Positions 48,330 to 64,000 of a DNA stretch of 64,000 nt are shown here, piece after piece. Origin of the DNA: a virus. Its lineage: Duplodnaviria > Heunggongvirae > Uroviricota > Caudoviricetes. The DNA lies in IMG/VR virus record IMGVR_UViG_3300042544_003430. One strand, given 5' to 3'. Within the stretch, counting starts at the first letter, position 1. Each line of letters begins with the position of its first letter. A program made the translations under genes and the position numbers. The notes beneath the pieces were generated by a model. The model did no database searches. It was not told the DNA's origin and worked only from the letters and a program-made list of their open reading frames with translations.

Positions 48330-49085
48330 ATGATCAAAGATTCAGACATAGTTTTTGTTACCCCTTCTTTATCCACTAAATGGATAAATTATCAACAGAG
48401 TATATTAAAATCAAATTTTCCTGAAAGTTCCTTCATTGTCGTCGACGGAAGAGGGGGATGGCCAAAGTCCTGGTTTCTTTGGATAAATGAGGTTAAGAAA
48501 ACAAATCAAAAATGGTATATCCATATCGATGAAGATTGCTTCATCGAAAATAAATCTGAAGTAATTAAACTCCTTGAAAAAATGGAAATGGAAGATATTG
48601 GGATTTCTGCTATTTCTGAAGCATATTGTCATTTCAGAGGAAACAATCCAGTAGCTTTCAACTCTTTCTTTTTGGCTGGTAGGGTTGAAGATTTGCAGCA
48701 TGTCAATTTAGATATTAAAAATATCGATTTCAAATACGATGGACAAAATTGGAAGAATTCTTTAGGAATTCATTTTAAGAAAGAATATTTGGATGATTTC
48801 ATATATCCTCACGATAAAATCTGGCCTCATGATAATATAGAATCTGAATGCGAACCTTTTTATCTTTTCTGCTGGCTGATGAAGGAGAACAAAATAAAAA
48901 TTCATTATCTTTACCCTTACTTTGATTCCAGATTTAAGTCAACCAATCCAAGGATTGAGAAAGATTCTCCTGACATAGCAATTCACATGTGGTACACTAG
49001 ATTGTGCGACAGTCCTATGGACGTACACGGTCTTCCTAATAATGAAAGATATCGTAGATTGGAAGATTACCTTAATTCTAAATAA
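48330..49085 (+). CDS. hypothetical protein at the start of the glycosylation cluster
   Basis: ORF with no firm domain. Confidence 0.35.
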   Translation: MIKDSDIVFVTPSLSTKWINYQQSILKSNFPESSFIVVDGRGGWPKSWFLWINEVKKTNQKWYIHIDEDCFIENKSEVIKLLEKMEMEDIGISAISEAYCHFRGNNPVAFNSFFLAGRVEDLQHVNLDIKNIDFKYDGQNWKNSLGIHFKKEYLDDFIYPHDKIWPHDNIESECEPFYLFCWLMKENKIKIHYLYPYFDSRFKSTNPRIEKDSPDIAIHMWYTRLCDSPMDVHGLPNNERYRRLEDYLNSK

Positions 49086-49122
49086 ATTCTAAATAAATTT
49101 GGATCTTTGATACATATTTTAT

Positions 49123-49344
49123 ATGCCAAAGAAAAAAATTAAGGAGGGGGAACTTTCTAGAAGAGAGCAAATGCTCATGAAAGAAAATGCTATCATCAAA
49201 GGAAAATTAGGATTTGCCCTTGGTGTATTGGAAACTGTTCAAATCTTAACTAGAAACGTAAGTCCTGAAATACTAGAGAAAAATCTGGAGCATCTGAGAT
49301 TGACAATCCCGAGATCTCTAGAGGACCTTAGATCTGGTCTTTAA
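49123..49344 (+). CDS. small hypothetical protein (73 aa)
   Basis: ORF only. Confidence 0.3.
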   Translation: MPKKKIKEGELSRREQMLMKENAIIKGKLGFALGVLETVQILTRNVSPEILEKNLEHLRLTIPRSLEDLRSGL

Positions 49345-49898
49345 TCAACTTTAATCAGTTTAATTGTAGCACCTTTATATCCCTCTGCTTCTTTAGCAAG
49401 AGTTAAATTTTCTTGGCTATCATCAAAGAAAGTCAAATGCTTAAATCCTAAATCAATTAAATCTTTTATTGCTTCCTTTTTTCTATCTGCAATGGTTCCT
49501 TTATAACCATACTGAGGATCACTTATAGCAATTACAAGTTGTGGATGTATGTCAATCCCATTTTCTAAAAAGAAGTCCCTCACGAGCTTGCTAGAGCTTC
49601 TAGCAGTCACAATAGCAACAGGGATTCCTCTCTTATAGTAGCTTTTGAGCTTGTTAAATATCTCATGGATAAATCTTCCCTGTCTTAGAATTTCAGGGTT
49701 TAGAAAATCCCCAAAATCCAGAACGTGCTTAGATGGTTTAGATTCGAATGTGTTGAATTCCTGAGGGGTTAAGGACTTGATAATTTTCCCGGTTTTTCTG
49801 TCTACAATTTTTATCTTTGCATCAGTTCTGACAATAGTATCATCTAAATCAAAAATAACTAATCTGTTACCGGTATCTATTCCTTTAATTTCTATCAC
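49341..49898 (-). CDS. HAD-superfamily phosphatase
   Basis: LVIFDLDDTIVRT (motif I) and VAIVTARS (motif II). Confidence 0.5.
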   Translation of the reverse strand: MIEIKGIDTGNRLVIFDLDDTIVRTDAKIKIVDRKTGKIIKSLTPQEFNTFESKPSKHVLDFGDFLNPEILRQGRFIHEIFNKLKSYYKRGIPVAIVTARSSSKLVRDFFLENGIDIHPQLVIAISDPQYGYKGTIADRKKEAIKDLIDLGFKHLTFFDDSQENLTLAKEAEGYKGATIKLIKVD

Positions 49899-49926
49899 TC
49901 TTTGGGATAATTTCCCTTATATATTT

Positions 49927-50595
49927 TTAAATTTTAACTTTTACGATTCTAGTTTTATCTGAGATCTTCCTTTCTTCTAAGATTTCATATTTTAGAGTTG
50001 TTAATCCATCCGAATTTATTTTTTCCATCGCATTTTTTTGCCCTTCAGGGGAGCTAAATGAGAAATATTTTTTAAGATTCTCGTCATATAAATCTTTGAC
50101 AATATTTCTTTCGTGAGCTAACGATCTATATCTTCCATTTTTCCTAGATGTTGGGATCCCATTTAAAATGCATCTCAACATAACGTCGTCATCCTCTGCT
50201 CCCCACCCCCAGTAATCGTTAGAATATCCATTTGCCTTGATAAAGGAATGCTTATCGAAAATGGTAACCCCTCCGAAATACTTATGGTAAGGGAGTTTGT
50301 ATCCAAATTGCTCCGCTTCAGCTGCTAAATGGGTTGGATTCGGGGTATAAGTATAATCCGATGTTATTGGTAACATATCAACGTCATGGAAACAATAGTA
50401 ATCTGCAGAAGGTGATTCAAGTGCTCCGACGTTTAATAATTTTCCTCTGTTGAAAGGTTTATCGTCCTGTTCAACAATTACAATCTCGTAATCCAAATCC
50501 CTTAAGAATTCTGAATTCTCCATATGGGGAACAAATTTTTTTAAATGTTCTTCTCTGTCCCTATATGGAACTATGATAGATAATTTTTTAGACAT
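49927..50595 (-). CDS. GT7-family beta-1,4-galactosyltransferase-like glycosyltransferase (eukaryote-type)
   Basis: LSIIVPYRDREEHL, FNRGKLLNVG, CFHDVDMLP, YFGGV, NGYSNDYWGWGAEDDD and DGLTTLKY align along the B4GALT catalytic domain. Confidence 0.8.
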   Translation of the reverse strand: MSKKLSIIVPYRDREEHLKKFVPHMENSEFLRDLDYEIVIVEQDDKPFNRGKLLNVGALESPSADYYCFHDVDMLPITSDYTYTPNPTHLAAEAEQFGYKLPYHKYFGGVTIFDKHSFIKANGYSNDYWGWGAEDDDVMLRCILNGIPTSRKNGRYRSLAHERNIVKDLYDENLKKYFSFSSPEGQKNAMEKINSDGLTTLKYEILEERKISDKTRIVKVKI

Positions 50596-50672
50596 CAGAT
50601 ATTTTAGTTCATACTTTTGTTAAAGTTTCCGAAACATTATTCTTCTTCCCCGGTATAATTTTAAATTATTCT

Positions 50673-51521
50673 ATGATTTATTTTAGAAGCATCGGCTACA
50701 TGGGAAGGCTTGGAAATCAGATGTTCCAGCTTGCTTCAACAGTAGGAATAGCAAAAGAAAGAGGATTTGGTGCCGGAATTCCTATTGAGAATTGCACCAG
50801 AAAAATTGGAAGCGGACCAATTGACGTTAAAACCGGATTACAGACGAATGTTAAGTGCGATCTTTTAGATTGTTTCAATATCCCGTCAAAATATTTAATT
50901 CCGTTCAGTGAGGTAAAACCTCAGTACATTTACTACGAGGGGGATTTTAAATTCAATCCTCAGGTTCTATCTTTGGAACCATATACAGATTTATCTGGAT
51001 ACTTTCAAACCGAGGAATATTTTAAAAAATATAGGGAAGAAATTCTAGAAATCTTTACTTTTAAAAAAGAAGATGAAGAAGAAGCAAGAAATTTTCTATT
51101 AGAGAAGGTTCATTCTCTATCATCAAATAAGAATGTAATTTCTATTCACGTAAGAAGGGGGGATTATACGCTATATCCAAACCATCATCCGGTTTGTTCC
51201 GATGACTATTATAAATCTGCAATTGAAAAATTCGATCTAAAAAATTCTGTGTTTCTAGTTTTTTCTGACGATATCGAATGGTGCAAGAAAAAATTTGAAG
51301 GAGACAGTTTTATATTTTCAGAAACTAACAATCCATATGTGGATCTTGCAATTATGACAATGTGTGACCATCACATTATTGCAAACTCTTCTTTTAGCTG
51401 GTGGGGTGCCTGGTTAAATAGATCTAAGGACAAGAGAGTTATAGCTCCTTCCAGATGGTTTGGTCCTTCTTTACCTAAAGACACGAGTGACATATATTGC
51501 GAGGGATGGGAAATAATATGA
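50673..51521 (+). CDS. GT11-family alpha-1,2-fucosyltransferase-like protein
   Basis: GRLGNQMFQLAS, ISIHVRRGDY and HIIANSSFSWWGAWL motifs. Confidence 0.75.
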   Translation: MIYFRSIGYMGRLGNQMFQLASTVGIAKERGFGAGIPIENCTRKIGSGPIDVKTGLQTNVKCDLLDCFNIPSKYLIPFSEVKPQYIYYEGDFKFNPQVLSLEPYTDLSGYFQTEEYFKKYREEILEIFTFKKEDEEEARNFLLEKVHSLSSNKNVISIHVRRGDYTLYPNHHPVCSDDYYKSAIEKFDLKNSVFLVFSDDIEWCKKKFEGDSFIFSETNNPYVDLAIMTMCDHHIIANSSFSWWGAWLNRSKDKRVIAPSRWFGPSLPKDTSDIYCEGWEII

Positions 51522-52276
51522 GCAACAACTTCTTTTCCATAACGATAAACACCTTTAATCACGAGAATTGGATAGAGGGATGTCTATACAGCTGTTTAAA
51601 CCAGGATTATGATAACTTTGAAGTTATCGTTATAGACGACATTTCAACCGATAAGACTTTTGAGATATGCTCCAGGATACAAAAAGAATTTCCAGGAAAA
51701 TTAAGAGCTATAAGAAATGAGAATAAAATATTCTCGCAGGTCCGAAATATTCTAGAGCTCACTCTTCTTTCTAAGGAAAATTCTATAGTGGTTTCTGTCG
51801 ATGGGGATGATTGTTTAAAAAACAACCAGGTTCTAAAAAAACTAAATGAGGTCTATAATTCCGGAGAAGTCTGGATGACCTATGGAAGATATGAAGAATA
51901 TCCTTATAACGACGTTTCTGGAAGTTATTATGCTTACCCAGATCATATAATACAAGGAAATTTATTTAGGGAATACAGATGGATGGCTTCTCATCTAAGA
52001 ACTTATAGAAGAGAATTGTTTTTGAAAATCAAGGAAGAGGACTTTAAATTACCCGATGGTGAATGGCTTGACGTAACAGGGGATCAGGCATTTATGCTTC
52101 CAATGTTGGAGATGTCAAAAGAGAGAAGCAGATTTATTCCTGATATTCTTTATGTTTATAACGTAGCTAATCCCACAAGGGACGGAGCAACTAAAGTTCA
52201 TAGACAAGAAGAGGTAGCAAGATACATTAGATCAAAAGAAAAATACACCAGATTAGAAACATTAAATGAAAGATAA
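51518..52276 (+). CDS. GT2-family glycosyltransferase
   Basis: FSITINTFNHENWIEGCLYSCLNQDYDNFEVIVIDDISTD. Start set at the ATGA overlap. Confidence 0.6.
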   Translation: MSNNFFSITINTFNHENWIEGCLYSCLNQDYDNFEVIVIDDISTDKTFEICSRIQKEFPGKLRAIRNENKIFSQVRNILELTLLSKENSIVVSVDGDDCLKNNQVLKKLNEVYNSGEVWMTYGRYEEYPYNDVSGSYYAYPDHIIQGNLFREYRWMASHLRTYRRELFLKIKEEDFKLPDGEWLDVTGDQAFMLPMLEMSKERSRFIPDILYVYNVANPTRDGATKVHRQEEVARYIRSKEKYTRLETLNER

Positions 52277-52961
52277 ATTTTTTATGGCTATTCTTTCTCA
52301 TAAGGGAAGTAAGCACAGGGATGAACAAAAAAAACATCTCCTAGAAACAAACAACGGTGATATTATATTCTATTATTTTATAGGAGATTTAAATCTAGAC
52401 TCGGAATATAAAGTAGACGAAGAGAACAAAATAGTCTATCTAAAAGTTCCTGATAACTACGAATCTCTTCCCTTAAAAACACAAGCAGCTGTTTCTTTTG
52501 TGAATGAAAATTATTCCGACTCGATTAAAGGAATGATAAAAACAGACGATGATATAGAACTGGATATCGAAAAGATTTATTCTTGCCTTTCTATTCACGG
52601 AGATAAAGATTATTTTGGAATAGTTACACAGATAACTAACCCTGAAAACGTATCGACCTGGCACATGGGAAAATGTGAATCCGCAGAGATGAATAGAACC
52701 CCAGTAAGAGTTCCTCTTTGTACCTATTGTGGTGGTGGAGGATATTACTTAAGTAAAGAATCTATCTCTAAAATTTCCCAATCAAAGGAAAAATATTCCA
52801 CCATGGTATTTGAAGACGCAGCTACCGGATACGTTTTAAATTCATTTGGAATCTATCCAACGTTTATTCACATGGGACAGAATGGATTCGATTGGCCTAA
52901 TATGGTACCTCCTTCTCCTCCAGAATCTAAGGTTCAAGTCAATCCAATGTTAATAAGATAA
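52266..52961 (+). CDS. possible GT31-like (fringe/galactosyltransferase-like) protein
   Basis: DDDIELD and YCGGGGYYLSKESI resemble GT31 motifs. Weak. Confidence 0.3.
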   Translation: MKDKFFMAILSHKGSKHRDEQKKHLLETNNGDIIFYYFIGDLNLDSEYKVDEENKIVYLKVPDNYESLPLKTQAAVSFVNENYSDSIKGMIKTDDDIELDIEKIYSCLSIHGDKDYFGIVTQITNPENVSTWHMGKCESAEMNRTPVRVPLCTYCGGGGYYLSKESISKISQSKEKYSTMVFEDAATGYVLNSFGIYPTFIHMGQNGFDWPNMVPPSPPESKVQVNPMLIR

Positions 52962-52962
52962 G

Positions 52963-53646
52963 ATGATATCAATTTGTATACCTTGTTACGAGATGCACGG
53001 GAGAGGAAAGGATTTTCTAGACTTTAATTTGGAAAAAATTAAAGAACAGACCTATCAAGACTTTGAAGTTGTAATTTCAGACCACAGCCAAAACGAGGAG
53101 ATTAAATCTGTATGCGAGAAATATTCATCATTGGGTATGGATGTTAAATATTTTAAAAACGAAAATAATAGGGGGAATTCCTCTAGTAATATTAATAATG
53201 CAATTTCTAATTCTACTGGTGAAATAATTAAAATTATTTTCCAGGACGATTTTCTATATCACATTAATTCTCTAAAAGAAATAAGAGATTCTTTTTCTTC
53301 TAATGATATAGACTGGCTGGTAACAGCTTCTTGTCACACTACAGATGGAATTAACTTCGAGAGATTTTATTATCCAAGATATACAGAAGACATTATGACG
53401 GGGAATAATTTAATAAGCTCTCCGAGTGTTTTAAGTTTTAAAAATACCGGAGATGTTTGGTTTGACTCAAATTTAATCTGGCTAATGGACTGCGATATGT
53501 ACAAAAGACTCTATATGAGATATGGGGATCCTTTCTATTTAAATCGAATTAATGTTGTTAACAGAACTTGGGAAGGTCAGTATAATAATCACATCCCTTG
53601 GGAAAGAAAAAAATGGGAAATAGAATACGGGAGACATAAATACTAA
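52963..53646 (+). CDS. GT2-family glycosyltransferase
   Basis: ISICIPCYEMHG...YQDFEVVISDHSQNE. Confidence 0.55.
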   Translation: MISICIPCYEMHGRGKDFLDFNLEKIKEQTYQDFEVVISDHSQNEEIKSVCEKYSSLGMDVKYFKNENNRGNSSSNINNAISNSTGEIIKIIFQDDFLYHINSLKEIRDSFSSNDIDWLVTASCHTTDGINFERFYYPRYTEDIMTGNNLISSPSVLSFKNTGDVWFDSNLIWLMDCDMYKRLYMRYGDPFYLNRINVVNRTWEGQYNNHIPWERKKWEIEYGRHKY

Positions 53647-53662
53647 TAATATATAAAATAAA

Positions 53663-54226
53663 ATGAATAATTTAGAACAAATTTACCTTAATAAATGCGC
53701 TACTGCATTAGACATCAACGAGCATTTACCTACTTTAAGGAGATACACAGAAGAATGCGACGTTGTTATCGAAATGGGGGTTAGAAGCATAGTTTCAACC
53801 TGGGCTTTTTTACTAGGGCAGCCAAAAAAATTAATCTCTGTGGACATCGTTCATCCTAAAACTTATATCAATCATGACCCGTCTGGATGCAATTTAGATT
53901 TGGTTTATGAAATTGCAGAAGAGAGAGAAATTGAATTTGAATTTATAGAGTCAGATACCTTAAAAATGGATCCCATTGAATGTGATTTTTTATTCATCGA
54001 TACCCTTCATGATTACGATCAACTAAAGGAAGAATTAAGAATCCATTCGCCTTCTGTTAAAAAATACATAGGCCTTCACGATACAGAAACTTTTGCAATC
54101 AAAGGAGAAACCCCAGGAAAAGAAGGAATCTGGAGAGCAGTGGAGGAATTCCTATCTGAAGGAGAATGGAGAATTGGAGAAAGGTTTACAAACAATAACG
54201 GACTTACTATTCTATCTAGGATTTAA
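53663..54226 (+). CDS. possible class I SAM-dependent (O-)methyltransferase
   Basis: VIEMGVRSIVST and LFIDTLHDYD resemble motif I and post-I of TylF/CmcI-like methyltransferases. Weak. Confidence 0.3.
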   Translation: MNNLEQIYLNKCATALDINEHLPTLRRYTEECDVVIEMGVRSIVSTWAFLLGQPKKLISVDIVHPKTYINHDPSGCNLDLVYEIAEEREIEFEFIESDTLKMDPIECDFLFIDTLHDYDQLKEELRIHSPSVKKYIGLHDTETFAIKGETPGKEGIWRAVEEFLSEGEWRIGERFTNNNGLTILSRI

Positions 54227-54248
54227 TGAACAACCCCCGAAATAAGAT

Positions 54249-54914
54249 ATGCTTAAACTAGAAAACGTAACTCTCATAGCTTTAACAAGCGTTAGAATCC
54301 CTCAGACAATAAAAGCTCTGGAATATAGTTGCAGGGGAATCCAATTTGGAGATGTTAAATTAGCTTCCGATATAAAACCAGAAAATTTACCTGCTTTCAT
54401 AAAACATGAGTATACCGAAAGAAGTTCAAATATTGATGAGTGGAATTATAATATAATTTATAATCTATCCAAACATATAGAAACAGATTATGCAATTCTC
54501 ATTCACGATGATGGTTTTATAGTAAATCCGGAATCTTGGAGGAATGAATTTTTAGAATATGATTACATAGGAGCTCCTTGGGCTTTACCTTCAGATGATT
54601 ATTCGTACCGTGATATAAATGGAGAAATCGTTCGCCAGGGAAATAGTGTTTCTCTAAGAAGTAAAAAATTAATAGATATTCCAAATAAATTAAATCTGGA
54701 ATGGAAGTCTTTCTATGGATTTACAAATGAAGACGGATTTATATGTGCGCATTATAGGCATAGGTATATAGAAGAAGGATGTAAATTTGCAGACATTGAT
54801 GTTGCCAAATACTTCTCACACGAAACAATGATACCAGAAATAGAAGGAATAAAACCATTTGCATTTCATAGACACTTTGGTACCAATTCGATTTACCCTA
54901 ATTATGGAAGATAA
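54249..54914 (+). CDS. hypothetical protein (glycosylation cluster)
   Basis: ORF only. Confidence 0.3.
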   Translation: MLKLENVTLIALTSVRIPQTIKALEYSCRGIQFGDVKLASDIKPENLPAFIKHEYTERSSNIDEWNYNIIYNLSKHIETDYAILIHDDGFIVNPESWRNEFLEYDYIGAPWALPSDDYSYRDINGEIVRQGNSVSLRSKKLIDIPNKLNLEWKSFYGFTNEDGFICAHYRHRYIEEGCKFADIDVAKYFSHETMIPEIEGIKPFAFHRHFGTNSIYPNYGR

Positions 54915-55593
54915 AGAATTGGTGATATCCGCTTATGATAAACCAATCGATTGGTTGTCGTTAATTGATGATAATGTTAAAAAAACAATTTATCGAAAGG
55001 GAAATGCACTCCCATTGTCTAGTGGTGAAATTTTAATTGAACCAAATATTGGCAGATGCGTACATAGTTTTTTCAATCATATTAAAAATAATTATTACAA
55101 TTTATCCGATTATACATTTTTTGCTCAGGATTACCCATTTGATCATTGGGAAGATTTAATCTATGTTGTTAATGGTAATATTGAAACCTTTATAAATCGT
55201 TCAGCATTGAATATTGGTGGGTATTATGGATATCACTTTAATACTATTAAGGTTCCCTCAGAAAGAGGGGGGGTAATGCACACGATGCATCCGTCACAGC
55301 ATCACGGGAAAGGTAATGTAATCTCCTGTTATAGCAACGGGATGCCTCATGACCACAATCCAAATATCAACGTTGATGTGTACTGGGATTTATTATTTGA
55401 TGAACCCAGGCCAAATATGTATGAATTCATACCAGGGGGTCATTTCGGAATATCCAAAGAACATGTTCATTTAAGATCCCTTGATTTTTATATAAAAGTG
55501 ACTTCTTTATTGGAAGAAAACGAAACAGCCCCGTGGTTAATTGAAAGACTTGAATGCTACATATTTAATTCAAAATACAAGACAAAATTATGA
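54904..55593 (+). CDS. hypothetical protein (glycosylation cluster)
   Basis: Start set at the internal ATG (MEDKELV) to limit overlap. Confidence 0.3.
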   Translation: MEDKELVISAYDKPIDWLSLIDDNVKKTIYRKGNALPLSSGEILIEPNIGRCVHSFFNHIKNNYYNLSDYTFFAQDYPFDHWEDLIYVVNGNIETFINRSALNIGGYYGYHFNTIKVPSERGGVMHTMHPSQHHGKGNVISCYSNGMPHDHNPNINVDVYWDLLFDEPRPNMYEFIPGGHFGISKEHVHLRSLDFYIKVTSLLEENETAPWLIERLECYIFNSKYKTKL

Positions 55594-56450: not shown

Positions 56451-57266
56451 ATGAAGAAAAAAATAGCATTGGTGACAATGGCAAAAGATGAAGACTTGTA
56501 TATTCAAGAGTGGATCGATTATCATTTGAAATTAGGATTTGATAGTATATTCATCTATCAAAACAATTGGAGATTTAATAGTGAAGACTTGGATGAAAGA
56601 GTTCATCTTTTAGAGTGGGATATAGATTCCCCAGGTGATATGGATAACACCCCATGGTTATCAAATAGAATTGCTATGGCTTACACTCATTTTGGAAAAA
56701 CATATCACGATCAATTTGAATGGGCTGCTTTTATTGATGTCGACGGGTTTCTGGTATTGAAGCAAACGAACGATGTCAAAGAGTTTATTGCTAAATTTGA
56801 CAACGTTCCCCAAAGACAAGTTGTAATCAATCTAGCACAATTTGGTGATAATGGTCATACCGAGTTTGATCCGAACAACGCAAGTGTATTGGAAAGATTT
56901 ACTAAAAGATGGGGTAAACCTTATACTCACACCTACTATCATGTTGGACCAATATGCAAATTACACGAAAACTTTGATAAGCATGGGGTTCATATGGTAC
57001 ACGATGAAGAATGGATTGATGTAGATGGTGTAGTAGGCATAGGTACTTCAACTATTTTGAATTGCTCAAGAAAGGTATCATACGATACAGCACAACTAAA
57101 CCACTATTATACAAAGACTCTACCAGAATGGCTTAATAAATGTAATAGAACTCGTCCAGAGGGTGATCAGTATAGGAGTACGATTGAAGGTTTTTTTGAA
57201 CACAACCACAACGATGTAGAAGACTTTCATGCTTTAAACTTTTTTAGAAATCAACAAACTTTGTAG
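56451..57266 (+). CDS. GT92/DUF23-like glycosyltransferase
   Basis: KIALVTMAKDEDLYIQEWIDYHLKLGFDSIFIYQNN resembles the GT92 N-terminal signature. Confidence 0.4.
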   Translation: MKKKIALVTMAKDEDLYIQEWIDYHLKLGFDSIFIYQNNWRFNSEDLDERVHLLEWDIDSPGDMDNTPWLSNRIAMAYTHFGKTYHDQFEWAAFIDVDGFLVLKQTNDVKEFIAKFDNVPQRQVVINLAQFGDNGHTEFDPNNASVLERFTKRWGKPYTHTYYHVGPICKLHENFDKHGVHMVHDEEWIDVDGVVGIGTSTILNCSRKVSYDTAQLNHYYTKTLPEWLNKCNRTRPEGDQYRSTIEGFFEHNHNDVEDFHALNFFRNQQTL

Positions 57267-57269: not shown

Positions 57270-58010
57270 ATGGATATTATAAATACAAATTTGAATGTGC
57301 AAAAGATTAGTGATCCGTATGATATATGGATTATTGATAATTTTTTAAAAGAACATACTTTGAAAGGTATTAAAGATGCATGGCCATCTTATGAAAATGA
57401 TGCTTGGTATGTTGGACACCCTGAAATAGACGGTAAAAAGAATATATTAGAACAGGGTATGCTAGGAATTAGTAAAGTAGGGGAAATGCCTGAATTCATT
57501 AGCAATGTTATGAGTTATATCCACACAAAAGAGTTTACAGAAAGGATATCTAACCTTTTAAATTTACAAAACCTATTTCCAGATGAGCATATGAGATGGT
57601 CAGGTATGAGAACAATGCTTCCAAATTCATTCCAATTGATTCATAGTGATGCTAGAAAATCACCTAATTCAGGAATGCGTAAAGAGGTAACTTGTTTATT
57701 GTATCTGAATGAGAACTATAATAAAGAAAATGATGGCGGTTGTTTAGAAGTCTGGTCCGATGATATGTCAACTTGTATGCATGAAATTGAACCTATCTCA
57801 AATAGGTTTGTTGCTTTTTTAAACAGCGATACTTCCTACCATGGTGTACCAACTGTAAAATCAGAAAGAAAGTTAATTACATTCTCTATTTTAGCAAATG
57901 ATAGTTCTACCGATCGATATAAAGCTCTATTCGTTGCAAGACCTACCGATTCTGTTGAAGTTGGAATCGAAGGTGTTAAAAGGTCACAAATAAAAGATAT
58001 TAAAAAATAA
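57270..58010 (+). CDS. 2OG-Fe(II) oxygenase-like protein
   Basis: IHSDAR...LLYLNENYNKENDGGCLEVW...YHGVP resembles the HxD...H facial triad with a prolyl-hydroxylase-like core. Confidence 0.4.
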   Translation: MDIINTNLNVQKISDPYDIWIIDNFLKEHTLKGIKDAWPSYENDAWYVGHPEIDGKKNILEQGMLGISKVGEMPEFISNVMSYIHTKEFTERISNLLNLQNLFPDEHMRWSGMRTMLPNSFQLIHSDARKSPNSGMRKEVTCLLYLNENYNKENDGGCLEVWSDDMSTCMHEIEPISNRFVAFLNSDTSYHGVPTVKSERKLITFSILANDSSTDRYKALFVARPTDSVEVGIEGVKRSQIKDIKK

Positions 58011-58014: not shown

Positions 58015-59160
58015 ATGGAAGTAAAAAATTATCCTATATTCAAGGTTCATGTCGATGTAGATGGAGCTTTAGAAAATTTAAAAACGGTATTAACTAGTGG
58101 TTTTTTGAATGAAGGTGAGTGCGTAACACAATTTACCGATTTTTTAAATAATTATCTAAACCATAAAAATGTAGTTTTATTAAATAGCTGTACATCAGCA
58201 CTTACGTTAGCATTAAAATTGGCTGGGGTTTCTCCTAATGATGAAGTTATTACGACGTCGATGACGTGTGTTGCTACTGTCACCCCAATATCTAATTTAG
58301 CAGCAAAAGTAGTTTGGTGTGATATTGATTACAAAACAGGAAACATAGACCCGTTGAAGATAGAGTCATTAATCACCAAAAAAACCAAAGCTATTCTGTG
58401 TGTGAATTGGGCTGGTATTCCGTGTGATTTGGAAATGCTACAAGCAATCTGCAAAAAACATGGCATCAAACTTATACAAGATGCAGCACATTCCTTTGGC
58501 GCAAAGTATAATGGAGAGTCCATATGCCACTATGCAGACTATACTTGTTTTAGTTTTCAAGCTATTAAGCATATAACTACCGGGGATGGAGGAGCTTTGA
58601 TCTGCAAATCTGAACAGGATTTTGAAAGGGCTAAAAAATTAAAATGGTTTGGTATTGATAGAGATGCTACTAAAAATGAAAAGGGTGAGTGGAAAGGTCA
58701 GAGATGGGAAGTAAATATATTGGAAGCTGGATATAAGTTTCATATGAATAACGTATCGGCTGCTATTGGATTGTCCCAAATTCCCCATATTGATAACATA
58801 ATACAATCTCACATCGATAATGCAAATATTTATGATAATTTATTTAAAGACAATCCACACATAAAACCTTTAAAAATTAATAAAAATACACAACCGACAT
58901 ATTGGGTATACACTGTAATACTGGATGAAAGTATTAATCGTAATGATGTTTTAGAAAAAATGAACAAACAAGGCATAGCTGCAGGGTTAGTACATATTCC
59001 ATGTGATGGATATCAGTGTTTTGAAGATAGTAAAACAGACCTACCACATACAAAGTATTTTTACGAGCATCAGCTATCTCTTCCGTGTGGGTGGTGGTTA
59101 AATTCAGAAGATATTAATTTCATAACCAATACACTAATTAAAATTCTACACAATGAATAA
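58015..59160 (+). CDS. DegT/DnrJ/EryC1/StrS-family PLP-dependent sugar aminotransferase
   Basis: QDAAHSFGAKY and SFQAIKHITTGDGGA (catalytic Lys) motifs. Confidence 0.7.
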   Translation: MEVKNYPIFKVHVDVDGALENLKTVLTSGFLNEGECVTQFTDFLNNYLNHKNVVLLNSCTSALTLALKLAGVSPNDEVITTSMTCVATVTPISNLAAKVVWCDIDYKTGNIDPLKIESLITKKTKAILCVNWAGIPCDLEMLQAICKKHGIKLIQDAAHSFGAKYNGESICHYADYTCFSFQAIKHITTGDGGALICKSEQDFERAKKLKWFGIDRDATKNEKGEWKGQRWEVNILEAGYKFHMNNVSAAIGLSQIPHIDNIIQSHIDNANIYDNLFKDNPHIKPLKINKNTQPTYWVYTVILDESINRNDVLEKMNKQGIAAGLVHIPCDGYQCFEDSKTDLPHTKYFYEHQLSLPCGWWLNSEDINFITNTLIKILHNE

Positions 59161-60022
59161 CATTCACAGTACTTCATTCATAGATCCATATATTCAGCTC
59201 GGAAAATTTAATCACGTTGGGAAAAATGTACAAATCAAGTACCTTGACGAAAATAACAAGCCATCCGTTGTAATCGGAGATAATAACATTATCAACGATA
59301 ATACAAGAATCTTAATAGGGGAAAATCCACTGAGTATAGGAGATTGGAATGTTTTTCATAACGACATGCTAGTTATGGTTGGTAAAAAGATTGACATTGG
59401 TCATAATTGTTGGTTCGGTCAAAATACAATTTTAGATGGATCCGGAGGACTTTCTATAGCTAACGGGGTTAGAGTTGGAATGTATTCTCAAATATGGACA
59501 CACGTTGCTAGCGGTGAATTAATAGAGGGATGCTTATTGTTTGGAGACAGTAAGACAAACATCGAAGACGATGTTTGGTTAGTTGGAAGCTGTACAGTTT
59601 CTCCAGGGGTTTGTTTAAGAAAAAAATCAGTTTTTTTAATAGGATCCATAGTAACAAAGGACTCGGAAATCGAAAAGGTATACTCAGGAACACCAGCCAC
59701 TATTAATGATAAAATAAAAGCTTGGAAAGAGATCTATCCTGTTGATAAATTAAAAATGCTACTTGAATGGAGTGAGATTTTTTGTATCGGTAAAAAATAC
59801 GAAATTGACAATCAAATCGAATCGGGATACTTTACCGTCAAATCTACCGAAGATAAAGAGATGTTAATTTTTTTTATCAATGGGGGATTTTCGATACCAA
59901 ACGAATATGTTGTCAGTTTATTTAATGTATTGGACAAGACACTTACCAAAAAAAATAGTCTCTTAGAAAGAACATTTTATAAATCTATTTATAATAATAA
60001 AGCTAGATTTCGTATCATATAA
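59153..60022 (+). CDS. hexapeptide-repeat (left-handed beta-helix) acyltransferase
   Basis: Repeated [LIV]G..... hexapeptides, e.g. IGDNNIINDNTRILIGENPLSIGDWNV and IDIGHNCWFGQNTIL. Confidence 0.5.
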   Translation: MNNIHSTSFIDPYIQLGKFNHVGKNVQIKYLDENNKPSVVIGDNNIINDNTRILIGENPLSIGDWNVFHNDMLVMVGKKIDIGHNCWFGQNTILDGSGGLSIANGVRVGMYSQIWTHVASGELIEGCLLFGDSKTNIEDDVWLVGSCTVSPGVCLRKKSVFLIGSIVTKDSEIEKVYSGTPATINDKIKAWKEIYPVDKLKMLLEWSEIFCIGKKYEIDNQIESGYFTVKSTEDKEMLIFFINGGFSIPNEYVVSLFNVLDKTLTKKNSLLERTFYKSIYNNKARFRII

Positions 60023-60034
60023 AAATAAAAAATC

Positions 60035-60994
60035 ATGAAAAATAAAAAAATACTCCTAATAGGAGGAAGCGGAGCTCTTGGAAAAACTCTAATAGGGCTC
60101 TATCAAAACGTGAATCAAATCAAAGTATTGAGTAGGGACGAACACAAACAAGTCAATTTAATATCTTCAGATTGGGTAAACAAAGAAAACGTTAGTTTTA
60201 TGATCGGAGACGTTAAGGATAAAGATTGTATCCTAAACGCTATAGAAGATTATAGACCAGATATAATCATAAACGCAGCTGCGTTGAAGCACGTTCCTGT
60301 GTGTGAAATAAACCCATACGAATCGGTTAACGTGAATATAATTGGGCATCAAAACTTGTTAGAGGCTGTGAGACGTAGTAAGCATACTATAGAGACTTTG
60401 ATTTATGTATCATCTGATAAAGCGTGTAAACCGGTAAACATCTACGGAATGTGTAAAGCAATCTCTGAAAGATTGTATATTGAATTTGCAAAAAAACAAA
60501 CGGATATAAAAGTTTGCTTAGTTCGATATGGAAACGTTTTGGAATCTACAGGTTCTGTTATTCCATACTTTAAGCAGCTATTAAAAGATGGAGTAACAGA
60601 ACTACCCATCACAGATTTACGTATGACAAGATTTTTATTAACACTGGAATCAGCAGCTAAGCTAATAGAATGGGCATACTACAGTCCCATATCACACGGT
60701 AAGATAGCAATACCTAAAGTACAATCATTTAAGATAATAGATATCGCAAATGCTTTAATATCAGAATATCATCCAAATTCAGACATTAAATTGAAAGTTG
60801 TAGGAATACGAAAAGGTGAAAAATTACACGAGGAAATGATATCTTCCGAAGAGTGGTTGCGTACTGAAGATCACGAAAACTATCTTATTACAGATGAAAT
60901 AATTAGAGAAGAGGGGATTTCTTATAATTCCTATGACAGTGTGATGCACGAAGAGAAAGTTCATGATTTCTTAAAGCTTTGCGGTGTGATCTAA
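60035..60994 (+). CDS. UDP-GlcNAc 4,6-dehydratase (PseB/CapD/FlaA1-like)
   Basis: ILLIGGSGALGKTL Rossmann motif and YVSSDKACKPVNIYGMCK catalytic region. Confidence 0.65.
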   Translation: MKNKKILLIGGSGALGKTLIGLYQNVNQIKVLSRDEHKQVNLISSDWVNKENVSFMIGDVKDKDCILNAIEDYRPDIIINAAALKHVPVCEINPYESVNVNIIGHQNLLEAVRRSKHTIETLIYVSSDKACKPVNIYGMCKAISERLYIEFAKKQTDIKVCLVRYGNVLESTGSVIPYFKQLLKDGVTELPITDLRMTRFLLTLESAAKLIEWAYYSPISHGKIAIPKVQSFKIIDIANALISEYHPNSDIKLKVVGIRKGEKLHEEMISSEEWLRTEDHENYLITDEIIREEGISYNSYDSVMHEEKVHDFLKLCGVI

Positions 60995-61066
60995 TAATAT
61001 AATGGGAGTAACAGAAATATACAACGGACAAAGATCAAGTAATTTACTAAGGAAAAATAGGATCTT

Positions 61067-61978
61067 ATGATAACAACAAATTTAACAGGTAACTTAGGAA
61101 ATCACATGTGGCAATATGCTGTATGTAGAGCCATATCCGAAAAACTTGGATATGAATGGGGGATAAATCCTTCTCCCTCGCATGACTATCACAATGGGAT
61201 GAACCAAATGTATTTTATGGATGTGGATTTTGGGAAATTTCCAGAAGGTGAATTTGTAGACTTTCATGAAAAATGGACAACATATAGACACATAGATGAT
61301 GTCAATATCACTTTTTTAGATCCTAGAGTTTATCAGATTCCAGATGGGACTCGAATGATAGGAGATAATGGAGCATTGGGAGGAATTTATCAATGTGAAG
61401 ATTATTTGATAGAAAGGAAGGAAGAGATATTAAAATGGTTCAGCATCAGGAACGAATACAAGAATAAGTTTGATTTGGAGATGGAAAAAATGGGAATTGT
61501 TCTTGATGAAAATACCTGTGTTATAAATTTCAGAGGTGGAGAATATAGGGGCCTTAGTAATGTAATTCTAAGAAGAGAATATTGGAGGGACTCTATAAAT
61601 CATATGCTTTCTCTAAATCCTCAAATGAAATTCGTAATTGTCACAGACGATCCGGGATGCGCTTCCTCGTTTATGCCATTTGACATTCCGACTGTACACG
61701 GAGAGATTGGATTAGATTTTTATACAGTTAATCAATCAAAATGGGTAATTTTATCCAACTCTACTTTTGGATGGTGGGCAGGATGGTTAAACACCAGGGC
61801 AGAAAAAATCATAGCTCCAAAATATTGGGCAAGACACAATGTTAGTGATGGGTACTGGGCAACTGGGGAATCTTATACCAGAGGATTCACATATCTTGAT
61901 AGAGAAGGATCTCTATCTGACTACGAAACTTGTAAAAAAGAAGCTTTAGATTACTATAAATTAAAAAATATTATATGA
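61067..61978 (+). CDS. GT11-family fucosyltransferase-like protein (second copy)
   Basis: GNLGNHMWQYAV, VINFRGGEYRG and ILSNSTFGWWAGWL. Confidence 0.7.
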   Translation: MITTNLTGNLGNHMWQYAVCRAISEKLGYEWGINPSPSHDYHNGMNQMYFMDVDFGKFPEGEFVDFHEKWTTYRHIDDVNITFLDPRVYQIPDGTRMIGDNGALGGIYQCEDYLIERKEEILKWFSIRNEYKNKFDLEMEKMGIVLDENTCVINFRGGEYRGLSNVILRREYWRDSINHMLSLNPQMKFVIVTDDPGCASSFMPFDIPTVHGEIGLDFYTVNQSKWVILSNSTFGWWAGWLNTRAEKIIAPKYWARHNVSDGYWATGESYTRGFTYLDREGSLSDYETCKKEALDYYKLKNII

Positions 61979-62838
61979 GAATTTTTGACGGATTTTGTTT
62001 CTTTAACGAGCTTGACATACTAGAAATTAGATTAAATACCCTGGATCCCCATGTTGATTATTTTATAATAGTAGAATCCTCCGTAACACACACTGGAAAT
62101 CCTAAACCCTATTATTTTGAAGAAAATAAAGAAAGATTCAAAAAATTTCTACCAAAAATCATACATTTGAAAATAGAAGATACCCCTAATAATTTCACTG
62201 ATCTGGGAGAAGATTTATTAGGTTCTGATTTTGATTCTCTAGAAGTTAATAGGATAAGTGGATTTATAAAAAATCAAAGTTGTTTTAATATAAACCACGA
62301 GATTCATTATGGGAGGGATTTTTACCAAAAAGAATGTGTCAGAAGAGGATTTGAGTTCTGCGAAGACGATGATATTATAATTTTTTCAGATTGCGACGAA
62401 ATTCCAAATCCTGAAATTCTAAAATCTTTAAAGACCTTTTATAACCCAGATTTGTTCTATGATTTTTTACAGACTACTTATTATTATTATTTAAATGTTC
62501 TCAAGGAAAAAAACTGGAGAGGATCTTCTATGGGGTCTTTTAAAAGATTAAAGGAATTTTCTCTTAATCAATTAAGGGCTCAGAAAAATCAAGAAATTGA
62601 AAATGGAGGATGGCATTTTAGTTTTATGGGAGGTCCAGAAAAAGTAAGAACTAAGATAACATCCTATTCCGCTCAGGAAATGCTAAATGCAAATGTATTA
62701 CAATCTATAGAGAACAATATAAATAATAATATAGATCCTTTCTTTCGAAGTACTCTTTCGACAGTGTGGATAGATTCATCATACCCTTCATATATTACCG
62801 AAAATCTACCTAAATTTAATCACATGATAAAAAAATAA
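61975..62838 (+). CDS. GT17-family (GnT-III-like) glycosyltransferase
   Basis: RIFDGFCFFNELDILEIRLNTLDPHVDYFIIVESSVTHTGNPKPYYF matches the GT17 N-terminal signature. Confidence 0.65.
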   Translation: MRIFDGFCFFNELDILEIRLNTLDPHVDYFIIVESSVTHTGNPKPYYFEENKERFKKFLPKIIHLKIEDTPNNFTDLGEDLLGSDFDSLEVNRISGFIKNQSCFNINHEIHYGRDFYQKECVRRGFEFCEDDDIIIFSDCDEIPNPEILKSLKTFYNPDLFYDFLQTTYYYYLNVLKEKNWRGSSMGSFKRLKEFSLNQLRAQKNQEIENGGWHFSFMGGPEKVRTKITSYSAQEMLNANVLQSIENNINNNIDPFFRSTLSTVWIDSSYPSYITENLPKFNHMIKK

Positions 62839-62897
62839 TAATTTCCTGAAATTATTCCTGAAATTTTATCTAAGATAATCTATACAAATTCAAAAAA

Positions 62898-64000
62898 ATG
62901 ATAAACCAAGAAAGTATTAAAAGTCTGGTGGGAAATCACGTTTCCCCCTACATATACAACTCCAAAGAGTTCAAGCCCGGAAAAACCCCCATCTATTATT
63001 CAGGTCCATATTGGGACAATAGAGAAGCAGAAGCAGCTATAGACTCTTTGCTTAATGGAAGATGGATAACAGCAGGGGAAAAAGTCTTTTTGTTTGAAAG
63101 AAAGTTCAGCAAAAGATTTAATGTACAGCATTCTCACATGGTAAATTCAGGCAGTTCTGCAAATCTTGTTATGATAACTGCTTTGAAGACTAGATTTGGC
63201 TGGGAAGACGATGACGAAATTATAGTTTCCCCAGTTGGATTTCCAACAACCATTTCTGTTTTGCACCAGAATAGATTAAAACCTGTATTTGTTGATATCG
63301 AATGGGAAACCTTAAATTTTGATGTCAGCAGAATCGAGGAAAAAATCACTCCAAAAACAAAGGGAATTTTCGTTTCTCCTGTTCTGGGTAATCCTCCAGA
63401 CATGGATGAAATTCTAAGAATTGCAGAGAAACATAATCTTAAAATTATAGGCGACAATTGTGATTCTTTAGGAAGTAAGTGGGATGGAAAATACCTAAAT
63501 GAATACTATGTTGCTTTCTCAAATTCTTTCTACCCGGCACACCATATTTCTACTGGAGAAGGTGGAATGATCTGCACAAATGACGAGGAAATTAAAAAGC
63601 TTCTTGTTAGTATTTCATGGTGGGGCAGAGACTGCTATTGTGTTGGATCTGCTAATCTACTTTCTTGTGGGACTTGTGGAAAGAGATTTGACAACTGGTT
63701 AGAATCTTATGACGGAATTGTGGATCACAAATATGTCTTTTCTAATATGGGATACAATCTAAAGCCTTTAGATCTTCAAGGTGCTATAGGACAAGTTCAA
63801 CTTGAGAAGATAGACGAAATAGAAGAAAACAGGAAAAAATCTAAGAGCCGAATAGAAGAAATTTTCATCTCCAATATTAAGGGGATAAAACCGGTTCAAA
63901 CTCATGCAAAATCAGATGTTTGTTGGTTCGGTACCCCGTTTATTTGCGAAGAAGAAGGACTAAAACACAGACTTGTTGATTACTTAGAAGCCAATAAAAT
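62898..64000 (+). CDS. DegT-family PLP enzyme, DdhC/RfbH-like (CDP-4-keto-6-deoxyglucose 3-dehydrase-like), 3'-partial
   Basis: Not in the ORF track because it has no stop in the window. PIYYSGPYWD...W.TAGEKVFLFE..F...HSHMVNSGSSANL matches the RfbH/DdhC N-terminal region. Runs off the window end. Confidence 0.55.
   Translation, partial: MINQESIKSLVGNHVSPYIYNSKEFKPGKTPIYYSGPYWDNREAEAAIDSLLNGRWITAGEKVFLFERKFSKRFNVQHSHMVNSGSSANLVMITALKTRFGWEDDDEIIVSPVGFPTTISVLHQNRLKPVFVDIEWETLNFDVSRIEEKITPKTKGIFVSPVLGNPPDMDEILRIAEKHNLKIIGDNCDSLGSKWDGKYLNEYYVAFSNSFYPAHHISTGEGGMICTNDEEIKKLLVSISWWGRDCYCVGSANLLSCGTCGKRFDNWLESYDGIVDHKYVFSNMGYNLKPLDLQGAIGQVQLEKIDEIEENRKKSKSRIEEIFISNIKGIKPVQTHAKSDVCWFGTPFICEEEGLKHRLVDYLEANK

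Follow-up and report, generated by a model that had tools for sequence, protein, structure and literature searches.

A variable glycan-biosynthesis island with GT7, GT11 and GT17 family transferases carried by an uncultured huge phage

Clusters that combine multiple glycosyltransferases with enzymes of nucleoside diphosphate (NDP)-sugar metabolism were described in jumbo phages by Iyer et al. in 2021 (PMC7824862) and in pelagimyophages by Zaragoza-Solas et al. (PMC7029224). Thirteen transferases were reported for S-SCSM2R (PMC12801897), and four core transferase families for the Moraphages, which are predicted to infect Bacteroidota (PMC12619734). Here we describe an island of this kind in the IMG/VR virus record IMGVR_UViG_3300042544_003430 (Caudoviricetes), which was analyzed as one stretch of 64,000 nucleotides, hereafter the window. 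The island begins at 47.1 kb, runs ~0.9 kb past the window end, comprises 23 tightly packed genes in ~17 kb, and belongs to an uncultured huge phage whose lineage has genomes of ~370-435 kb. Contiguous, diverse transferases lie there together with NDP-sugar enzymes in a large phage genome, and the content varies among relatives, as in other large-phage glycan islands. Given the cyanophage, jumbo-phage and pelagimyophage precedents, this kind of element is already known; what is added is this island, its GT7 member and a new GT-A family.

The glycan clusters of cyanophages (RN05-S, S-B05, S-B43, RB11-B and S-SCSM2R/P-SSM2) likewise measure ~18 kb and hold many soluble transferases, sugar-nucleotide enzymes, methyltransferases and 2-oxoglutarate (2OG) oxygenases. 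A GT17 gene (32% identity), annotated so in GenBank, is carried by the Synechococcus myophages RN05-S, S-B05, S-B43, RB11-B and S-H68, where it adjoins genes for an alpha-1,2-fucosyltransferase and a 431-residue DegT protein inside an 18-kb transferase and sugar-nucleotide cluster; GT17, GT11 and DegT genes are adjacent in the window island as well. The RN05-S cluster contains homologues of six island genes (GT17, both GT11 types, the RfbH-like DegT, the DUF5672 GT-A and GT2) at 29-42% identity. However, the cyanophage cluster has GMD, RmlC and GT25 and is without GT7, GT31 and the PseB/PseC/hexapeptide branch, and the cyanophages are T4-like phages of ~200 kb, whereas the lineage of the window phage reaches 370-435 kb and bears a Bacteroidota signal. 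The putative function of the cyanophage clusters is usually read as host-surface modification. A second relative is found in LR756502.1, a 642-kb freshwater-lake megaphage of the Al-Shayeb et al. set, which is discussed in PMC9723777. Its island lies at the same site, directly beside a Clp ATPase 62% identical to that flanking the window island, and encodes homologues of the new GT-A protein (50%), DUF5672 (73%), the second GT11 (52%), GT17 (43%), the second GT2, the first GT11 and the RfbH-like enzyme. It is without GT7, and since the record is unannotated the island there is undescribed.

Three other systems share part of this layout. The blood-group-like O-antigen clusters of E. coli and Shigella (PMC4202792) also use anchor-less transferases at the cytoplasmic face, transfer of beta-4-Gal to GlcNAc-PP-lipid and of alpha-1,2-Fuc to Gal, and deoxy- and amino-sugar branches, but in these loci Wzx, Wzy or an ABC exporter is present and WecA is required, whereas the window island encodes none of them. 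The gtrABC modules (GtrA flippase, GtrB bactoprenol glucosyltransferase and a type-specific membrane Gtr) and the O-acetylase modules are phage genes that alter a host surface glycan against superinfection; they consist of one to three genes for membrane proteins acting in the periplasm, in contrast to the 23 soluble proteins of the island, where no membrane component was found and the GT2 matches are short soluble proteins. PBCV-1 and mimivirus, like the window phage, encode soluble transferases without signal peptide or anchor and their own sugar-nucleotide enzymes, with GT17 in some chloroviruses. These are, however, eukaryotic viruses in which glycosylation of capsid or fibrils has been demonstrated, whereas the acceptors considered for the window island are candidates, and the PBCV-1 glycosylation genes are scattered rather than clustered (PMC5408694).

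Several lines of evidence place the island in a viral genome. Sequence 100% identical to that of the window was assembled in eleven contigs, drawn from no fewer than seven JGI or SRA samples; together these contigs span both island borders, from 45.4 kb on the Clp side to a UvsX-like recombinase gene ~8.7 kb past the window end on the other. The source samples of the lineage include JGI 3300042446 and 3300042473 and SRR27419058. Tetranucleotide usage of the island correlates with that of the remaining window (r=0.93), the GC contents being 0.332 and 0.382, respectively. Viral contigs of IMG/VR, up to 373, 430 and 434 kb long, carry relatives of the GT7 protein (45-61% identity), and four IMG/VR contigs of 373-435 kb have both a relative of GT7 and one of an unrelated gene of the window (9407-10615). 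Neither tRNA genes nor a cellular housekeeping set was found in the window. The flanks are phage-like, with genes for a UvsX-like recombinase, NAMPT, phosphoribosyl pyrophosphate (PRPP) synthetase, tRNA nucleotidyltransferase, an HD phosphohydrolase, an HNH endonuclease, a MoxR/VWA pair and a ClpA/B-type ATPase among many ORFans. A preliminary description of this DNA had raised the possibility of a host O-antigen island on a misassembled contig; the identical contigs over both borders, the tetranucleotide usage and the relatives at the same site contradict this, and we reject it.

The host is probably a member of the Bacteroidota. The best host clue in the window is a 1697-residue protein (11644-16737, + strand; local GC 0.43, above its surroundings) that combines no fewer than eight PKD domains with a CHU_C type IX secretion sorting domain at its C-terminus. 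Such a protein is cargo for a Bacteroidota-specific secretion system and thus points to a Bacteroidota host.

Gene classes were assigned with Pfam and NCBIfam profile scans, using Pfam gathering scores as cutoffs. For comparison we used L038, a metagenome contig identical to the window that reaches past its end, the related loci L007-L010, L012, L043 and L044, LR756502.1 (L105) and cyanophage RN05-S (L106). The island genes are as follows (SAM, S-adenosylmethionine; PMP, pyridoxamine phosphate).

47132-47998, + strand: class I SAM-dependent methyltransferase, upstream island edge (Methyltransf_12 34.5 bits, Methyltransf_25 29.7 bits)
47995-48294, + strand: 99-residue protein with no Pfam match; 51-66% identical homologues adjoin the island in L007, L012, L043 and L044
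48330-49085, + strand: GT-A-fold glycosyltransferase, previously unannotated (structure prediction)
49341-49898, - strand: HAD-superfamily phosphatase-like protein, conserved partner of GT7 (HAD-IIIC 26 bits; DLDDT motif I)
49927-50595, - strand: GT7 beta-1,4-galactosyltransferase-like protein, 222 residues (Glyco_transf_7N 64.9 bits, 7C 82.4 bits)
50673-51521, + strand: GT11 alpha-1,2-fucosyltransferase-like protein, divergent from GT7 (PF01531 121.7 bits; HVRRGDY)
51497-52276, + strand: GT2 glycosyltransferase (PF00535 66.3 bits; 80% identical homologue in L007)
52266-52961, + strand: GT31 (Galactosyl_T) beta-1,3-transferase-like protein (PF01762 57.2 bits; DDD at residues 94-96)
52963-53646, + strand: GT2 glycosyltransferase (PF00535 58.9 bits; tblastn 41% to LR756502.1, 33% to cyanophage RN05-S)
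53663-54226, + strand: 187-residue protein, possible SAM-dependent O-methyltransferase (GxG-like and FIDTLHDY motifs, weak PHROG methyltransferase match)
54249-54914, + strand: DUF5672 protein (PF18922 44.2 bits)
54904-55593, + strand: DUF3431 protein, 229 residues, 54904 being the gene callers' start (PF11913 37.1 bits)
55590-56450, + strand: weak GT2-like protein, variable cassette (PF00535 19.4 bits, below the cutoff of 23.3; 28% homologue in L044)
56451-57266, + strand: GT-A transferase of the Glyco_tranf_2_4 type, variable cassette (PF13704 38 bits; PF01697, GT92, 23.4 bits against a cutoff of 23)
57270-58010, + strand: 2OG-Fe(II) oxygenase, prolyl-hydroxylase-like, variable cassette (PF13640 54.3 bits; HxD...H and Arg)
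58015-59160, + strand: DegT sugar aminotransferase, PseC-like (PF01041 325.7 bits)
59153-60022, + strand: left-handed beta-helix hexapeptide acyltransferase (Hexapep 27.2 bits; WcaF and NeuD/PglB/VioB family matches)
60035-60994, + strand: UDP-N-acetylhexosamine (HexNAc) 4,6-dehydratase, PseB/FnlA/CapD type (PF02719 268 bits)
61067-61978, + strand: divergent GT11-like transferase (PF01531 32.2 bits; degenerate motif FRGGEY)
61975-62838, + strand: GT17-like transferase, soluble (PF04724 100.9 bits)
62898-64000, + strand: E1/RfbH-type PMP-dependent NDP-4-keto-6-deoxyhexose 3-dehydrase, cut by the window end (full gene, 428 residues, in L038)

In L038 the RfbH-like gene runs to ~64184 and is followed by a gene for a 232-residue short-chain dehydrogenase/reductase (SDR) to ~64879, where the island ends. 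The genes are nearly gap-free on the + strand, except for the divergent pair on the - strand. Nine transferases are well supported among the 23 genes, up to 11-12 in all, along with at least six sugar-modifying enzymes. The contiguous glycan-biosynthesis block of the preliminary description was thus recovered, with most of the named gene classes in place at E-values far beyond chance: the GT7, two GT11-like, GT17, two GT2 and GT31 genes all have Pfam matches over threshold, and the PseB/CapD dehydratase, the two DegT enzymes (one RfbH/DdhC-like), the hexapeptide acyltransferase and the 2OG oxygenase have profile matches. Some items needed amending. For the gene called GT92-like, the match to PF01697 is borderline and covers 127 of 249 profile positions, and Glyco_tranf_2_4 fits better. 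As to the methyltransferase-like genes, the sole Pfam-supported one (47132-47998) lies upstream of the 48,330 start given earlier; we assign it to the island by adjacency. The related islands contain no homologue of it, and it is particular to the version of this phage. The other, 53663-54226, has no Pfam or NCBIfam match, and its motifs suggest a possible SAM-dependent O-methyltransferase. The DUF5672, DUF3431 and third, weak GT2-like (55590-56450) members had been omitted. For the HAD-like protein, matches to other HAD families were weak and below Pfam cutoffs, but homologues 64-82% identical adjoin GT7 in L007-L010, L043 and L044.

None of the 23 island proteins has a transmembrane segment (maximum 19-residue Kyte-Doolittle hydropathy below 1.5), and the island scans gave no Pfam family for an initiating phosphoglycosyltransferase (PGT), flippase, polymerase, ligase or ABC exporter. 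Since no protein has a membrane segment, the island encodes no initiating PGT, flippase, polymerase, ligase or Gtr protein.

The GT7 protein aligned with human/bovine B4GALT1 (phmmer; 2ae7_A) at E=3e-40 over residues 4-212, which is the whole catalytic domain, and was 37.6% identical to human B4GALT1 over 221 aligned residues by blastp. The residues in register include FNRGKLLNVG and WGWGAEDDD, which pair with the metazoan enzyme as FNR(A/G)KLLNVG and WGWG(G/A)EDDD, the metal site DVD within HDVDM, the Tyr that precedes FGGV and the His at the C-terminal metal position; DVD, WGWGAEDDD and FNRGKLLN are invariant or nearly so across 19 relatives. Both Pfam gathering scores were well exceeded (27 for 7N and 23 for 7C). 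At just 222 residues, the protein is without the cytoplasmic tail, membrane anchor and stem of the Golgi enzymes. Catalytic domain and motifs are therefore held in common with metazoan B4GALT1, whereas tail, anchor and stem occur only in the latter, and the phage protein, made in the bacterial cytoplasm, is one of a very large and mostly metagenomic radiation of short GT7-like proteins. The activity of the family is an inverting transfer of Gal or GalNAc in beta-1,4 linkage; by family membership, the phage protein is predicted to transfer Gal in this linkage onto GlcNAc.

Searches of 50,697 GenBank phages returned no GT7 homologue (tblastn, E<=1e-5) and no match to the 15.7-kb region (megablast). 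In IMG/VR, however, relatives of GT7 were found at no fewer than 31 loci, although an exact 46-mer of the window gave no hit there. Close relatives alone fill over 1500 clusters at 90% identity, and the whole GT7-like family amounts to 6076 clusters at 50% identity (E<=1e-3). Many bacterial phyla have chromosomal homologues, examples being a 3.3-Mb contig of Desulfomonilaceae and the cultured Rhodoplanes tepidamans. In SAR11 single-cell genomes (Pelagibacteraceae, L084-L101, e.g. L092 7974-8753), we observed a 259-residue GT7-like gene with both Pfam GT7 domains over threshold, standing as a lone gene in a conserved position between hisF of the histidine operon and a TRAP transporter, with no polysaccharide locus there. 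GT17 is annotated in cyanophages, uncultured Caudovirales, chloroviruses and prasinoviruses, and it too has thousands of metagenomic homologues. The view that GT7 and GT17 are predominantly eukaryotic therefore holds for curated databases and fails for sequence space, and the reading of the two genes here as eukaryote-type acquisitions finds no support.

Human B4GALT1 scored 145 bits with the phage GT7 and 63-128 bits with homologues on clearly bacterial contigs (126-128 for Planctomycetota), so that it resembles the Planctomycetota homologues about as closely as it does the phage protein. Two contigs filed as metagenome-assembled genomes (MAGs), L045 and L046, scored 149-150 bits, and both group with the phage GT7 clade. 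In a rough neighbor-joining tree (one metazoan sequence, no support values), human B4GALT1 is sister to the main phage GT7 clade, not around it. The top 150 clusters of a representative search all scored at least 152 bits, and two of the ten clusters looked up were EukProt animal proteins with tandem GT7 domains. The two score in the same range. On these data, the phage clade is neither clearly apart from eukaryotes nor clearly derived from them. We conclude from the comparisons that the family spans all domains; they lend no support to recent capture from a eukaryote. That the short soluble GT7 clade of huge phages might be the nearest prokaryote-side relative of the metazoan Golgi beta-4-galactosyltransferases is rather unlikely; this idea belongs with the reading of a megaphage protein-glycosylation system taken up below.

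The partner of GT7 is the first GT11 gene (50673-51521), which adjoins it in ten related huge-phage loci and forms with it a conserved core. Among the island genes, PHROGs v4 holds a family for this one alone (phrog_2644, 268.6 bits). Its product carries the HxRRGDY motif besides the Pfam match, and by family membership it would transfer Fuc in alpha-1,2 linkage onto Gal. The second GT11-like protein (61067-61978) passes the Pfam cutoff but fails the motif. With identities of 81% to L043, 73% to L007, 52% to LR756502.1 and 29% to RN05-S, it is part of a shared GT11-GT17-RfbH module. The GT17-like protein exceeds its cutoff of 26 bits in two stretches and was modelled by AlphaFold2 with a predicted local distance difference test score of 91.0. 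Against BFVD, annotated viral GT17 proteins superpose on this model at template-modelling scores of 0.75-0.82 (0.77-0.80 for uncultured Caudovirales); the matches include proteins of uncultured Caudovirales phages under the name 'Glycosyl transferase, family 17' (E=3e-22 and 1e-20) and a 'Multiple type acyltransferase domains containing protein' of Chrysochromulina ericina virus CeV-01B (E=3.6e-22). Homologues are found in LR756502.1 (43%) and five Synechococcus phages (32%), and there are more than 7600 metagenomic relatives; close ones bear the JGI name beta-1,4-mannosyl-glycoprotein GlcNAc-transferase. Sequence searches found no solved relative. No activity, be it that of GnT-III (bisecting GlcNAc on beta-Man) or another, is known for a bacterial or phage GT17 (PMC4202792), and the family is listed for chloroviruses and prasinoviruses (PMC5408694, PMC12906663).

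The GT31 protein (cutoff 23 bits) has homologues 56-74% identical in L007, L043 and L044 and no match among PDB sequences. Few genes of the shared module are better conserved than DUF5672 (85% L044, 83% L007, 73% LR756502.1, 42% RN05-S). The RN05-S homologue carries the GenBank note 'glyco_tranf_GTA_type domain', and the protein is probably a GT-A transferase. DUF3431 genes occur in the L043, L007 and LR756502.1 islands too. The newly recognized protein at 48330-49085 belongs to a family of ~100 clusters, with members on huge-phage-sized contigs of 345-577 kb and a 50% identical homologue in LR756502.1. In profile searches against PDB sequences, neither this family nor DUF5672 matched anything even at E<=5, so that the GT-A fold of 48330-49085 was resolved by structure prediction only. 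The best structural neighbors of the predicted model are protein-glycosylating enzymes, and it resembles Fringe and PBCV-1 A64R.

The remaining enzymes fall into three putative branches of sugar-nucleotide supply and decoration: the PseB-like/PseC-like/hexapeptide trio, the E1/RfbH-type dehydrase with the SDR reductase, and the methyltransferase and 2OG-oxygenase genes. PseB and PseC models gave 262 bits with 60035-60994 and 284 bits with 58015-59160, below their equivalog cutoffs of 407.75 and 423.5, and profile scans of the island found no PseG-, PseI- or PseF-like gene. With both cutoffs missed and the later-step enzymes absent, the product is not pseudaminic acid, a candidate that we rejected; a plausible pathway would comprise only the first two to three Pse-type steps, to a 4-amino-4,6-dideoxy-HexNAc. 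The RfbH-like protein matched Yersinia E1 (PDB 3bcx) at E=1e-78, with the active-site His of YPAHHI and the Fe-S Cys cluster aligned; the RfbH model gave 364 bits against a cutoff of 423. For the 2OG oxygenase (57270-58010), the PDB matches were weak (E 4e-4 to 4e-2) and nearly all were prolyl hydroxylases.

Comparison of the related islands shows a conserved core next to swapped cassettes, that is, a hypervariable island. The order Clp, (S21), small ORFs, HAD, GT7 and GT11 is kept in ten related loci, and L007, L043 and L044 also keep GT2-GT31-GT2-DUF5672 and, further on, GT11b-GT17-RfbH. The middle differs: this genome has DUF3431, two GT-A genes, the 2OG oxygenase and the PseC-like/hexapeptide/PseB-like trio; L043 has a UDP-galactopyranose mutase (UGM) and a methyltransferase; and L044 has two FkbM-type methyltransferases (Methyltransf_21). 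On the 373-kb contig L008, genes for GMD, a GMER-like reductase, UGM, FkbM and further transferases come after the core. The LR756502.1 island carries a GT2+GT6 fusion, a sugar C-methyltransferase fusion, a UDP-glucose dehydrogenase and an SDR-hexapeptide fusion. Such cassette-like variability is as expected for a surface-exposed glycan under diversifying selection. The GT2+GT6 fusion (LR756502.1 18476-20068; GT6 151 bits) lies near several GT11 genes. GT6 is the family of the ABO and alpha-3-Gal transferases, and its presence there, together with GT7 and GT11 in the window island, suggests that blood-group-like epitopes recur in this phage group.

We consider it very probable that the island encodes a self-contained cytoplasmic assembly line for a glycan. 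In this model, UDP-GlcNAc would be converted to its 4-keto-6-deoxy, then 4-amino, and finally N-acylated 4-amino-4,6-dideoxy-HexNAc form by the PseB-like, PseC-like and hexapeptide enzymes, and an NDP-4-keto-6-deoxyhexose to a 3,6-dideoxyhexose by the E1/RfbH-like 3-dehydrase and the SDR reductase. GDP-fucose and UDP-galactose would come from the host; the islands of relatives encode GMD, a GMER-like enzyme and UGM. From these donors 9-11 soluble GT-A transferases would build a hetero-oligosaccharide around the GT7-GT11 core pair. The pair itself would make Fuc-alpha-1,2-Gal-beta-1,4-GlcNAc, a fucosylated N-acetyllactosamine (LacNAc)-like and thus H-antigen-like motif, which the other transferases would extend and the methyltransferase and 2OG-oxygenase products decorate with methyl and hydroxyl groups. 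The chain could be built on the undecaprenyl-pyrophosphate (Und-PP)-GlcNAc primer of the host at the inner face of the membrane and exported by the host flippase and ligase or oligosaccharyltransferase, so that the lipopolysaccharide (LPS) or glycoproteins of the infected cell would be re-coated, for instance against superinfection.

What the glycan is attached to is a separate question, and the targets named in the preliminary description (virion protein, host polysaccharide or DNA) are not separated by sequence alone, although DNA is the least likely of them. Classical serotype conversion by membrane Gtr proteins, one form of the second, is excluded because no membrane protein is present. 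Our slight and tentative preference is for a lipid-linked envelope glycan of the host. The absence of transmembrane segments from all 23 proteins is shared with the O-antigen transferases of the cytoplasmic face, and the sugar branches of the island are the classic ones of bacterial O-antigens. A bacterial beta-4-galactosyltransferase acting on GlcNAc-PP-lipid is documented, although it belongs to GT26 and not GT7 (PMC4202792), and comparable clusters in cyanophages, pelagiphages and jumbo phages have been read as host-surface remodelling (PMC7824862, PMC7029224, PMC12801897). A universal Und-PP-GlcNAc primer would moreover explain the six homologous genes shared with the cyanophage cluster and the movement of modules across host phyla.

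A number of observations weigh against this picture. With no PGT, flippase, polymerase, ligase or ABC exporter in the island, export would have to be borrowed wholly from the host. Donor and acceptor specificities are predictions drawn solely from the families. The models for PseB, PseC and RfbH all scored below their equivalog cutoffs, and neither an E3-like flavodoxin/ferredoxin reductase nor a CDP- or GDP-hexose 4,6-dehydratase was seen in the island, where only the gene for the 232-residue SDR comes after the RfbH-like gene. We know of no experiment that has shown the target of any such large-phage cluster. Two weak hints, the prolyl-hydroxylase-like oxygenase inside the cluster and the protein-glycosylating enzymes nearest in structure to 48330-49085, point to protein, and anchor-less soluble transferases with their own sugar-nucleotide enzymes fit the cytoplasmic capsid glycosylation of chloroviruses equally well (PMC5408694).

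These last points lead to the main alternative, almost as probable as our preferred reading, in which the soluble transferases would decorate capsid, fiber or decoration proteins of the virion in the host cytoplasm and cassette swaps would diversify the virion surface. Chloroviruses, mimiviruses and some mycobacteriophages do glycosylate virion proteins. For mycobacteriophages this was established by experiment (cited in PMC12619734). No transferase of the island has a signal peptide or transmembrane segment, as is also the case for the enzymes that glycosylate the PBCV-1 capsid (PMC5408694), the island brings its own sugar-nucleotide enzymes, and the likeness of 48330-49085 to Fringe and A64R and the oxygenase within the cluster would both fit. 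A phage-encoded acceptor would also make the sharing of modules among phages of very different hosts easy to explain. However, no recognizable structural gene stands beside the island in the window, L038 or LR756502.1, and no candidate protein-initiating transferase was identified. In addition, the oxygenase sits in a variable cassette rather than in the conserved core, and we came across no account of virion glycosylation in the cyanophages that carry a related cluster. A more specific version appears unlikely to us: a host-independent cytoplasmic protein-glycosylation system of a megaphage, equivalent among bacterial viruses to the glycosylation systems of chloroviruses and mimiviruses and begun by 48330-49085 or the DUF5672 GT-A, which would put a fucosylated LacNAc-like (histo-blood-group-like) coat on capsid or fibers, with cassette swaps acting as antigenic variation of the virion.

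Hypermodification of DNA, in which the sugars would be placed on a modified phage base to evade restriction, is very improbable. Phage clusters that put mono- to trisaccharides on 5-hydroxymethylcytosine (5hmC) do exist, with transferases related to LPS enzymes, but they are defined by a C5-cytosine methyltransferase and a TET-like 5mYOX or a hydroxymethylase beside the transferases (bioRxiv 10.1101/2023.12.21.572611), and profile matches in the island revealed no such pair, which makes DNA glycosylation unlikely. A 2OG oxygenase and a methyltransferase do lie in or beside the cluster, and a DNA methylase and folate/purine genes are found elsewhere in the window; the oxygenase, however, is of the prolyl-hydroxylase-like PF13640 type and not TET/JBP, and the methyltransferase (Methyltransf_12/25) is of the small-molecule type. 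Moreover, 9-11 transferases and two to three deoxy- or amino-sugar branches go far beyond any known DNA glycan, and GT7, GT11, GT17 and GT31, as families, use glycan acceptors. Least probable of all, and to our minds negligible, is a host O-antigen island taken in by misassembly or binning: gene content resembling bacterial O-antigen loci, the slightly lower GC of the island and the two close GT7 homologues filed as bacterial MAGs (L045 and L046) would suit it, but both junctions are identical across the eleven contigs, tetranucleotide usage agrees, the position next to Clp is kept in IMG/VR contigs of 111-434 kb and in LR756502.1, the flanks are phage-like, and Wzx, Wzy, PGT or any other membrane protein was absent from the island.

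Some features of the window and its flanks deserve mention. The conserved left border of the island is a ClpA/B-type double AAA+ ATPase; the name FtsH/Lon suggested by PHROG for this 709-residue protein was replaced, as the Pfam annotation of its homologues is ClpA/B-type double AAA+. Between it and the methyltransferase gene, a 64-residue ORF (~46935-47126, + strand) resembles ribosomal protein bS21, and its homologues of 66-68 residues in L043 and L044 have a Pfam Ribosomal_S21 match. About 1.2 kb past the window end and directly after the island, L038 encodes a 702-residue protein (9268-11376 of that contig) that has a peptidoglycan-binding domain and weakly matches endolysins; no other protein of the neighborhood contains a hydrophobic stretch. 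It is possibly a virion-associated or lysis protein.

At least nine ORFs start with the N-terminal motif MK(H/N/Y)(I/L)xx(F/Y)Ex(F/Y), three of them via an internal Met; the motif-related ORFs are 1509-2417, 3274-4131, 4145-5029, 5041-5619, 5616-6188, 34171-35283, 35291-35821, 39766-40158, 47132-47998 and 47995-48294. Four ORFs end in ...DL(D/E)xVGL, and two have DLDGVGL or DLAEVGL straight after the N-terminal motif. The motif resembles MKTYQEFIAE, the T4 internal-protein capsid-targeting sequence, and its bearers may therefore be packaged into the head. It was found in none of the island transferases.

Auxiliary genes typical of very large phages are located at 17133-18083, 23402-24931, 28042-28773, 33173-34132, 36159-39703 and 44795-46924 and include PRPP synthetase and NAMPT (NAD salvage), tRNA nucleotidyltransferase, methylenetetrahydrofolate reductase and a MoxR-type ATPase with a VWA-like DUF2201 partner, between which lies an HNH endonuclease gene (37114-38139, - strand). 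A 352-residue adenylosuccinate-synthetase-like protein (20346-21404, + strand) scored 190 bits with a PHROG family of the PurZ type, the type linked to 2-aminoadenine (Z-base) DNA; among solved structures, however, it is closest to ordinary PurA, without a match to any PurZ entry. The HD phosphohydrolase gene (6954-7481, + strand) stands apart from it. In positions 1-5000 the GC content is 0.42-0.48, against ~0.33-0.38 elsewhere, and paralogous ORFs there have leucine-rich-repeat-like segments (LxSLEGxP).

The island is a rich and well-delimited example rather than a new principle. Large phages of very different hosts (cyanobacteria, SAR11 and probably Bacteroidota) bear big, fast-changing sugar-chain islands, of which this locus is among the richest, and a six-gene module (GT17, two GT11 types, RfbH-like, DUF5672 and GT2) moves between unrelated phage lineages. 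These findings also correct a database bias, in that GT7 and GT17 are not essentially eukaryotic families. The anchor-less 222-residue GT7 (38% identical to human B4GALT1), together with GT11, GT17 and GT31, provides candidate soluble enzymes for glycan synthesis that would be expressible in E. coli, and the conserved GT7-GT11 pair yields a concrete product prediction, Fuc-alpha-1,2-Gal-beta-1,4-GlcNAc.

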